This document shows positions 62,363 through 64,000 of a DNA stretch of 64,000 bases, one piece after another. Numbering within the stretch: position 1 is the stretch's first letter; each line of letters opens with the position of its first letter. The translations under genes were made by a program, and so were the position numbers. Location: the NCBI RefSeq assembly GCF_003019035.1, contig NZ_CP027447.1, one strand, 5' to 3'. The notes under the pieces are model-generated. The model saw only the letters and a program-made list of their open reading frames with translations, was not told where the DNA came from and did no database searches. This DNA is from Escherichia coli. Lineage in GTDB: Bacteria; Pseudomonadota; Gammaproteobacteria; Enterobacterales; Enterobacteriaceae.

Positions 62363-62414
62363 GTCACATTTCCATTTTTGCAATATGTGATAACCTGTTG
62401 CATATGTGGAAAAT

Positions 62415-62603: not shown

Positions 62604-62640
62604 TGTTGTCTCCTTTGTTGATGCAATGATGTTTGTTTTA

Positions 62641-62695
62641 TATGTGATAGATTATGTGAACTATTGTTCTCATTGTCAATGAGGTTTATGTGAAT
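62641..62695. promoter_or_regulatory. candidate operator repeats in the repressor/ner divergent intergenic
   Basis: TATGTGA occurs three times (62641, 62653, 62687), the last two as TTATGTGAA; the third contains the repressor GTG start. Confidence 0.35.
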
Positions 62696-63115
62696 TTTGA
62701 TTCTCTTTGCGCGTCGCGGTTCAAAGCTGAGCGTTCGCGGTTATCACTCAAGCAGGCTGAAGTAGCAGCCCTTTGTGGCGTTTCAAGAGAAATGTGGGGG
62801 AAATATGAACGAGGGGTTGCTGTTCCCGGAGGTGAGTTACTTGCAGCCTTTGCAAGAATTGGGGCCAATGTACAGTTCATTCTTACCGGGGAGTCATCAG
62901 GTATAACTTTATCACGTGATGAAATGGAGTTACTGCAGCACTACCGGCAAGCACCGTTACAGGTCAAAGGTTCAGTTTTGTCGGCTTTGACTACTGGCTC
63001 CTCCAGAGAACGGGCGGAACAGGTTATTCATGGAGATGTTCTGGGGAATGTTATCAAAGGTAACGTAACCATAGGAACAGGTGGAATAATGAACAAAAAT
63101 ACCAAGAGAAGATGA
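62690..63115 (+). CDS. XRE-family (Cro/C1-type HTH) phage repressor candidate
   Basis: 141 aa, GTG start; N-terminal HTH (LSLKQAEVAALCGVSREMWGKYERG); divergent from the ner-transposase operon. Confidence 0.7.
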   Translation: MNFDSLCASRFKAERSRLSLKQAEVAALCGVSREMWGKYERGVAVPGGELLAAFARIGANVQFILTGESSGITLSRDEMELLQHYRQAPLQVKGSVLSALTTGSSRERAEQVIHGDVLGNVIKGNVTIGTGGIMNKNTKRR

Positions 63116-64000
63116 GTAAAGAGAAGCAAACAGTTAACGGGGATGTGGGTAACGTTGTCAGCGGTGATGTTACCATTCATAACTATTCTGCTGACATACT
63201 TCCTTCTGCCCAGCAACCAATTTCGTTGCTGCAAAAACGCGATTTACACAGATTGATGGATGAATTGGTTGATCTGGGGGAAAGTAAGCGCGAGCTATGG
63301 ATGACGATCCACACGAAACTTAATACCAAAACAGTTAATGAAATGACTGCGGCTGATTATCATGGTGCGGTTGAGATCCTTCAGAGATATGCACAACAGA
63401 TCCAGAATATGAAGGACTGTAATCTTCTGGTCAGCAAAATAATGGCGCTTACTGACCCTGGGTATCGTCTTGACCGTGACAGATACTGTCTGAAGCATTT
63501 CGGTACAACCCATCTTAAAGGCCTGGACAAAGAGCAGTTGCAGGCTGTGTTTGGTTATTTTGATGATCTGCTGAATATTCGTGATGAGAGTAAAACTCTA
63601 TCACCTCCATCGGAAAGCGGTGCAAAATCAGTCGCAACTGTACCAACCAGAAGCCGGAAGCCTCATGTAGTAGTGTTGGGGGGAGCGTTAGTTCTTGTAG
63701 CAATATTTTTCGTGGGAATGATTGTGTTCGCTGGTAAATGGGGAAATGCTAAAGCAGTAGCTTCTACTGAAACCAGCGTTTTTAACATTAAAACCAACGA
63801 CAAAATAATAGAAGATTCCATCCCCGCACTGCGCAGCATGTTTCCAGGATTAAATAAGTACTCAGATGATTTCCATTCGGTTTCAAGCTACAAGCAAAAA
63901 ACGGGCTGGCATACCCTTAAATTTACTGTATCAGCAAAGGCATCCGTCCCCGAAAATTATAGTGTTAAGGGCAAGGTTTGTTACATTAACATAAACCCTG
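63112..64000 (+). CDS. hypothetical single-pass membrane protein, 3' partial (runs off window end)
   Basis: Hand-translated open frame from ATG 63112 with no stop before 64000 (absent from ORF track because incomplete); ATG overlaps repressor stop (ATGA); TM helix VVVLGGALVLVAIFFVGMIVFAG. Confidence 0.6.
   Translation, partial: MSKEKQTVNGDVGNVVSGDVTIHNYSADILPSAQQPISLLQKRDLHRLMDELVDLGESKRELWMTIHTKLNTKTVNEMTAADYHGAVEILQRYAQQIQNMKDCNLLVSKIMALTDPGYRLDRDRYCLKHFGTTHLKGLDKEQLQAVFGYFDDLLNIRDESKTLSPPSESGAKSVATVPTRSRKPHVVVLGGALVLVAIFFVGMIVFAGKWGNAKAVASTETSVFNIKTNDKIIEDSIPALRSMFPGLNKYSDDFHSVSSYKQKTGWHTLKFTVSAKASVPENYSVKGKVCYININP

Follow-up and report, generated by a model that had tools for sequence, protein, structure and literature searches.

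What might a gene be for whose start codon lies across the stop codon of a prophage repressor? The question is posed by the end of a 64,000-nucleotide (nt) stretch of Escherichia coli DNA (contig NZ_CP027447.1 of assembly GCF_003019035.1; hereafter the window), where the gene for an XRE-type prophage repressor overlaps that for a predicted membrane protein, itself cut by the window end. The two genes form a widespread repressor–partner module, undescribed so far, that bears a signature of peptide mimicry, the tail of the repressor and the N-terminus of the membrane protein carrying matching peptides. In this respect the module is akin to repressor–antirepressor and paired-motif signalling systems. 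The membrane protein is likely to be a dedicated partner of the repressor rather than exchangeable cargo, and the best explanation of it, put forward tentatively, is that it serves as a membrane-bound modulator or sensor of the immunity repressor and would act through homotypic peptide pairing. The features on which the argument turns are listed below (aa, amino acids; TM, transmembrane; pLDDT, the per-residue confidence of structure models).

62690..63115, plus strand: gene for the XRE-type prophage repressor, 141 aa, a homologue of BcepMu gp17 (open reading frame list, Pfam, 38.5% identity to gp17)
63017..63073, plus strand: repressor tail motif EQVIHGDVLGNVIKGNVTI, aa 110-128 (BLASTP against the partner N-terminus, shuffles)
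63112..64000, plus strand: the gene in question, first 296 of 328 codons, for a predicted bitopic inner-membrane protein in the position of BcepMu gp18; cut by the window end
63124..63177, plus strand: Gly/Asn/Val-rich N-terminal peptide motif of the partner KQTVNGDVGNVVSGDVTI, aa 5-22 (family alignment)
63202..63591, plus strand: Flk_N domain (PF27202), all-helical and predicted to be cytoplasmic, aa 31-160 (precomputed Pfam, NCBIfam, AlphaFold2, Foldseek)
63667..63735, plus strand: single TM helix, aa 186-208 (Kyte-Doolittle maximum 2.9, the sole hydrophobic segment)
63772..64000, plus strand: predicted periplasmic alpha/beta domain, aa 221-328, of which aa 221-296 lie in the window (model, Cys conservation, lipoprotein homologues)

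The gene and its linkage to the repressor

The start codon of the membrane-protein gene, ATG 63112-63114, shares 4 nt (ATGA) with the repressor stop, TGA 63113-63115, and from there the frame stays open for 296 codons to position 64000 (translation, in pieces: MSKEKQTVNGDVGNVVSGDVTIHNYS...VVVLGGALVLVAIFFVGMIVFAG...CYININPDGSYARVLTAPCRSLLLDQQSTPDSKYRFILK). Both points had been made in a first-pass annotation of this DNA and both are borne out by the window sequence; that annotation had also named an early stop or a frameshift beyond position 64000 as what would make the gene a pseudogene, and neither is found. The region is 99.9% and 99.3% identical by megablast to prophages of E. coli A24 and IAI39, and there the gene is an intact annotated coding sequence of 987 nt and 328 aa, labelled ‘hypothetical protein’ as in all the annotations of it that were examined. 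Its stop is thus expected some 98 nt beyond the window, at the equivalent of position 64098. It is full length in every one of the 126 complete E. coli genomes in which it is found, and its ratio of nonsynonymous to synonymous substitution (dN/dS), taken against four diverged alleles, is about 0.1 across the two domains. It is accordingly a real, intact gene, and neither a pseudogene nor a chance open reading frame (ORF). Two E. coli alleles (L015:4001-4987 and L001:8713-9699; L numbers denote loci and P numbers proteins) differ little at synonymous sites over the N-terminal two thirds (dS 0.04-0.09) and strongly in the periplasmic domain (dS 0.67), a jump that points to a recombination joint near the linker and TM region.

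The linkage of the two genes recurs across phages. Seen from the partner, an XRE or helix-turn-helix (HTH) gene lies directly upstream, on the same strand, of the Flk_N proteins in L004, L022, L023, L024/25, L026, L027, L028 and L030, contexts that span BcepMu-like and P2-like prophages. Seen from the other side, retrieval from IMG/VR with the repressor only gave at least 494 relatives, of which the best 80 were examined as loci. In 59 of these an ORF matching the Flk_N hidden Markov model (HMM) follows on the same strand, within 100 nt in 55 cases and with a 4-nt overlap in 17, and in another five the next ORF is short, carries the peptide and falls below detection by the HMM. Of 5426 complete E. 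coli genomes, 126 carry the repressor and 126 the membrane-protein gene, whilst the P2-like version of the pair (intact, L108) occurs in 520; with 126 genomes for the Mu-like and 520 for the P2-like kind, related modules are present in over 10% of the set. The frequent 4-nt overlap (17/59), the short same-strand spacing (55/59) and the absence of any terminator-like site in a scan between the repressor and the membrane-protein gene make it very probable that the two are co-expressed, presumably from a common transcript, much as the first-pass annotation had supposed.

Isolated phages carry the pair as well, as gp17/gp18 in BcepMu and in Ps59, gp39/gp38 in AP3 and ORF35/ORF33 in RSA1, so that the module is testable in cultivable phages. 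The window pair has the arrangement of gp17/gp18, in which an XRE repressor of the gp17 family is followed directly by its collinear partner, the early arm lying on one side of the two and the lysis genes on the other. In RSA1 (L112 3077-4297) an insertion sequence transposase, ORF34, has been inserted between the repressor ORF35 and its peptide-matching partner ORF33. In the record of the P2-like Escherichia phage 520873 (NC_049344; L006 3784-4396), the repressor gp04 and two integrase fragments are separated by a Flk_N gene that is frameshifted and carries no annotation.

The shared peptide and the protein that carries it

The repressor consists of an HTH domain (aa 10-56), two conserved helices (aa 76-103), the Gly/Asn/Val-rich tail motif and a basic C-terminal end. 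When the tail motif EQVIHGDVLGNVIKGNVTI is aligned with the partner segment KQTVNGDV-GNVVSGDVTI, 11 of 21 positions are identical (52%), with a BLASTP E value of 3e-04 for the single comparison and a z-score (z) of 8.2 against shuffled sequences. Seven of the 11 identical residues are encoded by different codons, and the lineages compared are saturated at synonymous sites, which argues for selection at the protein level. A DNA-level repeat or gene conversion was rejected as the cause of the mimicry on the same codon usage. A programmed -1 frameshift fusing repressor and partner was likewise rejected, the partner frame being open for only 16 codons upstream of its ATG and the gaps in many relatives measuring 2-90 nt.

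Similar resemblances are found in nearly every related pair, and tail and N-terminus vary together from one phage to the next; five pairs are given here.

L004: repressor tail QIFNGDISGQFAGNQIIN; partner N-terminus QEFNGTAQGQFSSRDIIN
L022: repressor tail LNISGNASRIAGRDF; partner N-terminus LNVGGDNNRIAGRDF
L023: repressor tail QVFHGKVGQSIAGNV; partner N-terminus QVFREDVGQAVAGDL
L026: repressor tail QQFNGPVGSVTSGDI; partner N-terminus QQFHGRIDQVAAGDI
BcepMu: repressor tail QVFHGSVGQAVKVEGN; partner N-terminus QEFNKPVGQAIQAGEAN

All 11 of the repressor–partner pairs checked by hand have matching peptides, and in the BcepMu, Ps59, AP3 and RSA1 pairs the resemblance of tail and N-terminus is apparent on direct reading. 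In seven pairs z is 7-12 against shuffles, and their cognate sum is reached in 3 of 5040 re-pairings. The cognate sum of 32 non-redundant IMG/VR pairs comes to 1424, compared with 834 +/- 64.5 after permutation; the permuted maximum is 1143 and none of 20,000 permutations reaches the cognate value. A z of at least 4 is seen in 48 of 59 pairs, and amongst the 11 low-z pairs are several (e.g. L036, L070, L082, L107) in which the start is miscalled or the N-terminus carries a long extension.

At the median, the shared segment spans 18 aligned aa; its identity between partners is 56%. It is enriched in N (log2 enrichment +1.7), G (+1.2), V (+0.8) and Q (+0.6), and depleted of L (-2.7), P (-1.6) and K (-1.2). 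No part of the partner's N-terminus is better conserved in the alignment than the peptide, with G13-N14-V15-V16-S17-G18 invariant in the family, and in the monomer model aa 1-30 are disordered (pLDDT about 42). Prophages of E. coli have peptides of two types, ‘GDVGNVVSGDV’ (type A) and ‘NRIAGRDF’ (type B). As a control, family repressors with helical or coiled tails (L007, L054-L069) are without a peptide-bearing partner. Amongst repressors with helical tails (‘...RVLKLVVNR’; L054, L056, L060, L066), the next ORF encodes 160-177 aa and starts with a helical ‘ELVAKLSARL...’ sequence, like P0047, P0058 and P0061, and these repressors and proteins may represent a second, helical type of tail/partner pairing.

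The protein that bears the N-terminal peptide has, by prediction, four parts: the 18-aa peptide, a cytoplasmic helical Flk_N domain, one TM helix and a periplasmic domain with two Cys. The first-pass annotation had read from the sequence a soluble N-terminal region, one TM helix and a further domain; all three are there, the helix lying at 63667-63735, slightly upstream of the 63690-63760 first given, and remote homology and structure prediction now give them as Flk_N, a single TM helix and a folded region at aa 221-328. AlphaFold2, run on an 18-sequence alignment, yields two confident domains, aa 31-160 and aa 221-328 (both with pLDDT above 90), with a disordered linker and the TM helix between them. 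The helix is flanked by TRSRKPH, rich in R/K, on its N-terminal side and by KWGNAK on the other. By the positive-inside rule, and given the two invariant Cys of the C-terminal domain (C290 and C308), this implies an N-in/C-out topology with a probably periplasmic C-terminal domain.

Database matches follow the same division. Precomputed annotation assigns PF27202 (Flk_N) to cluster P0001, which is 99% identical, and to relatives; a Pfam-A scan of the membrane protein gave nothing significant, with a library that does not contain the PF27202 model. NCBIfam Flk (NF007987, the PRK10715 equivalog) matches aa 19-147 to model positions 14-143 of 339 with 46.2 bits (E 3.5e-12), and does not reach its whole-protein cutoff of 353 bits. 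In AFDB50, Foldseek returns nothing but Flk proteins when the first domain is the query, and entries named ‘lipoprotein’ when it is the second, and structure searches with either domain gave no solved structural relative. Amongst PHROGs, phrog_10002, labelled as of unknown function, matches the full length, phrog_5825 matches aa 7-173 and phrog_6521, labelled ‘moron ... membrane protein’, matches aa 5-95. A profile search of 1.84 billion representatives found only 112 clusters, in two clean groups. The first comprises proteins of about 185-270 aa that match the N-terminal half only, and those examined consist of the peptide, Flk_N and a C-terminal membrane anchor; the second comprises proteins of about 130-320 aa that match the C-terminal domain only, the shorter ones examined consisting of a lipobox signal peptide and that domain. 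The periplasmic domain is thus homologous to small prophage lipoproteins, and lipobox-bearing homologues include P0029, P0033, P0037, P0041 and P0043.

The two groups meet in the prophages themselves. L004, L027, L030 and L039 have three genes, for the repressor, a tail-anchored Flk_N protein and a lipoprotein with the C-terminal domain, whilst in the clade of the window Flk_N and the periplasmic lipoprotein domain are fused in one protein. L019 and L020 have the fusion protein plus an extra lipoprotein paralogue. This Rosetta-stone relation (fused here, adjacent genes in sister prophages) ties the Flk_N and periplasmic modules together as what would be one functional unit. The closest counterparts are gp18 of BcepMu, annotated as ‘membrane protein’, and its equivalents in Ps59, AP3 and RSA1. 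The gp17/gp18 pair also diverges from the early arm, lies upstream of the holin and SLT genes and has the 4-nt overlap, and gp18 shares the matching N-terminal peptide, a partial Flk_N match, the TM helix and a Cys-containing periplasmic end. It differs in being 260 aa long, with a periplasmic part that is smaller and of another kind and gives no match to the C-domain HMM.

A proposed membrane-bound partner and its rivals

In the favoured explanation, the N-terminal peptide of the partner would pair homotypically with the repressor tail at the inner membrane, either as a beta-zipper or cross-beta structure of the kind known from amyloid-signalling gene pairs, or in a manner functionally like that of SinI/SinR. 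The Flk_N domain would be held at the inner membrane face, as it is in Flk, the one Flk_N protein studied so far, a flagellar regulator that is anchored in the membrane and inhibits from the cytoplasmic side by protein contact (PMC13344023). A membrane or envelope cue would be read by the Flk_N and periplasmic modules, and pairing driven by this cue would sequester, inactivate or stabilise the repressor. The outcome would be a RecA-independent control input on lysogeny and induction for repressors that lack an S24 domain. A Pfam search of the window repressor finds HTH domains only (HTH_31, 4e-07, and HTH_3, at aa 10-56) and no S24 peptidase or autocleavage domain. The XRE repressors of Mu-like and many P2-like prophages have no LexA-type cleavage domain and the way in which they are switched off is largely unexplained. 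In BcepMu, H2O2 derepresses the early operon 8-10x by a route left explicitly unexplained (PMC2830190). The specific pairing mechanism is plausible, if somewhat short of probable, with the physical contact, the direction of its effect and the signal all being inferred. Prion-like cross-beta templating in temperate Mu-like and P2-like phages of Proteobacteria, in which a membrane-anchored Flk_N sensor, clustered by an envelope or membrane cue, would nucleate the fold, recruit the repressor tail and strip the repressor from DNA, is an unlikely elaboration of it.

Several known systems lend parts of this scheme. Amyloid-signalling genes come in collinear pairs, with the effector, which carries the motif C-terminally, first, and often with an overlap; the motifs are about 25 aa long, enriched in Q, N, G, V and I, and depleted of K, P and L. 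The window pair resembles such pairs (HET-S/NWD2, BASS, Bab/Agp) in its adjacent, collinear genes that often overlap, in having the motif C-terminal in the upstream protein and N-terminal in the downstream one, and in a short motif that is rich in N/G/V/Q, poor in L/P/K and disordered in the monomer. The likeness is drawn because gene order, motif placement and composition match the signature used to discover such motifs. If it holds, an amyloid-signalling mechanism would extend from cell-death effectors to the transcriptional control of lysogeny, switching a transcription factor and a viral life cycle rather than cell death, and the orphan Flk_N domain would gain a second functional context. 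In SinI/SinR of Bacillus subtilis, the C-terminal oligomerisation segment of an XRE-type repressor is copied in the small product of an adjacent gene, an antirepressor that joins the repressor in a heteromer and so ends repression (PMC3163267). However, the SinI/SinR segment is helical, and SinI is soluble and separately regulated, whereas the window segment is G/N-rich, non-helical and disordered in models, and the partner is membrane-bound and probably translationally coupled. RseA-type membrane anti-sigma factors share a single-pass, N-in arrangement, a cytoplasmic domain for a transcription factor, a periplasmic signal input and an adjacent target gene. The likeness is architectural only, with no homology, and the target here would be a repressor and not a sigma factor. 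With this module, an anonymous ‘hypothetical protein’ becomes a concrete candidate, a conserved repressor partner whose translation would be coupled to that of the repressor.

A number of observations weigh against this explanation. The 262-aa Flk_N protein of L005 (4001-4789) has the N-terminal peptide and no adjacent HTH gene, and motif-bearing repressors are without a visible partner in L081, L104 and L106. The top-ranked partner is the cognate one in only 7 of the 32 pairs, and part of the co-variation lies between two or three motif classes and not within them. No all-in-one repressor–Flk_N fusion was found among 132 retrieved proteins and the ORFs of the 80 loci. An AlphaFold2 model of the repressor joined by (GGS)10 to partner residues 1-165, built on a 12-pair alignment, gives both peptides a pLDDT below 50 and predicts no contact. 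The motif, at about 18 aa, is shorter than the roughly 25 aa of BASS, the downstream protein is a Flk_N membrane protein and not an NLR/STAND or TPR sensor, and the upstream one is a DNA-binding repressor and not a pore-forming or enzymatic death effector. A literature search found no paper on the gp17/gp18 module, BcepMu gp18 or Flk_N proteins in phages. Finally, in Klebsiella ‘KP12_2’ a repressor without the motif is followed by the lipoprotein form of the periplasmic domain only, so that this domain may have a repressor-independent role, such as exclusion. The L005 protein itself follows a 90-aa non-HTH ORF and lies near HicAB and P2-type tail genes, with an HTH gene 3.5 kb upstream.

Exclusion is the role that the first-pass annotation had in mind when it likened the layout to lambda cI-rexA-rexB, where accessory genes ride the repressor transcript and one product is an inner-membrane protein. 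The likeness in transcript arrangement stands. In contrast, there is no relation in sequence or fold, one gene takes the place of two and one TM helix that of the several in RexB; moreover, the window protein mimics the repressor peptide, which suggests an interaction with the repressor itself. A Rex-like function in superinfection exclusion or abortive infection is therefore a serious but rather unlikely alternative. It could take the form of a periplasmic domain that blocks the entry of incoming phage DNA, or of a membrane-protein assembly, lethal or blocking, that is templated when the repressor is perturbed. The expected expression of the gene with the repressor, as the overlap suggests, would suit such a role, as would the occurrence of the periplasmic domain in stand-alone lipoproteins directly after the repressor (KP12_2, L019/L020), the placement after a repressor being typical of lysogen-expressed surface and exclusion proteins such as Llp and Cor. 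The phrog_6521 label over aa 5-95 points the same way, and the amyloid pair Bab/Agp is a working abortive-infection system of E. coli, found in a prophage hotspot. Yet no PADLOC defence model matches the membrane protein (best E 0.012), its one TM helix comes with no pore-type or enzymatic domain, and the gene is conserved and 1:1 with the repressor, exchangeable cargo lying downstream of it instead. Moreover, the effector of an amyloid pair is the member that bears the motif at its C-terminus, a place taken here by the repressor. Competition for a host factor would account for the shared peptide in another way, if both copies were tags, as degrons or adaptor sites, for one host protease or chaperone (e.g. 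ClpXP, Lon or FtsH), and the membrane protein tuned repressor turnover as a decoy without direct contact. The same exposed, disordered peptide on two proteins is what competition for one receptor predicts, almost every family repressor surveyed has a K/R-rich C-terminus, and the Mu repressor and MuA are both controlled by ClpXP through their C-termini. However, a host receptor would impose one consensus, whereas type A and type B pairs co-vary within E. coli prophages, and the decoy reading is accordingly quite improbable.

Two further readings separate the membrane protein from the repressor altogether. The peptide could be a functionless relic of a duplication or gene conversion at the junction, borne by an ordinary membrane protein; with two copies only about 50 nt apart, slippage or conversion would be mechanically easy. 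It is hard to see, however, why such a relic should persist across lineages saturated at synonymous sites, with different codons at 7 of 11 identical residues, with cognate pairs more alike than non-cognate ones and with the peptide as the most conserved part of the partner's N-terminus, which makes this reading very improbable. Slighter still is the chance that the protein is a phage-borne analogue of Flk that acts on the host flagellar type III export switch, and so on motility, its similarity to the repressor tail being incidental. Its sole named relatives are indeed Flk proteins (NCBIfam E 3.5e-12; Foldseek), and Flk shares with it a helical Flk_N domain that faces the cytoplasm and is anchored in the inner membrane, where Flk is a tethered inhibitor. 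Nevertheless, the 46-bit score is far below the cutoff of 353, and true Flk proteins (P0116, P0119, P0123) are chromosomal, with two or three tandem Flk_N repeats, a C-terminal tail anchor, and neither the G/N-rich N-terminal peptide nor a periplasmic domain, whereas the window protein has one Flk_N and a folded domain of 108 aa after the TM helix. An Flk analogue would also leave the linkage to the repressor and the mimicry unexplained. A modulator or sensor of the repressor remains the best explanation of the protein.

Prophage layout, repressor start and divergent promoter

The prophage has the BcepMu-type architecture, with the repressor and membrane-protein genes 9-10 kb inside it. In the annotated neighbourhoods of A24 and IAI39, the minus-strand early arm comprises genes for Mor, a gp16-family protein, Gam, a B-like ATPase (ExeA), the transposase, a DUF3102 protein, an HTH protein and a Ner-like protein. 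On the plus strand, the repressor and membrane-protein genes are followed by a short strain-variable region and then by holin, SLT transglycosylase and late genes. The left end of the A24 prophage lies past Mor, about 9 kb from the repressor, and adjoins a disrupted mdfA; the truncation of mdfA at this end (L003 10815-12245) indicates a transpositional insertion into the efflux gene.

The first-pass annotation, reckoning with Mu, where c lies about 1 kb from the left end, had taken the membrane-protein gene for extra cargo between the two. This was rejected, since the gene is internal, at the place of BcepMu gp18 in a BcepMu-type arrangement, with lysis and late genes after it and the left end about 9 kb away. 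It does not lie between the repressor and attL, and its presence does not vary, being found in 126 of 126 repressor-bearing genomes. It is the stretch downstream of the membrane-protein gene that forms the prophage's actual hotspot for cargo or defence. Between this gene and the holin, strains differ (L001 9700-11500, L002 9700-11000, L015 5008-6604, L019 5135-5968): A24 has a hypothetical gene and a KAP NTPase fragment, IAI39 a hypothetical gene and an ‘ABC transporter ATPase’, and other strains different ORFs or the extra lipoprotein paralogue.

At the other end of the pair, the repressor start differs from that annotated in RefSeq. A24 and IAI39 carry A at the site (L001/L002 8258) that is T in the window (62657), so that here the annotated ATG at 62654 reads ATG-TGA, with a stop as its second codon, and the start is therefore placed at GTG 62690. 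This codon is preceded, 5 nt upstream, by a GAGG Shine-Dalgarno sequence, and the 141-aa form that it gives is the one conserved in the diverged relatives L018 and L021. One further feature overlaps this start region.

62651..62679, minus strand (read 62679->62651; L001 8280->8252): strong sigma-70-like promoter TTGACA-17-CATAAT, 11/12 (promoter scan)

The promoter points leftward, to the Ner-like/transposase early arm, and is the probable target of repression, as its position suggests. Repeats of the TATGTGA type (ATATGTGATA / TTATGTGAA), at 62383-62392, 62640-62649, 62652-62675 and 62686-62709, flank and overlap the region of divergent promoters that separates the repressor from the Ner-like gene, and these are candidate operators.

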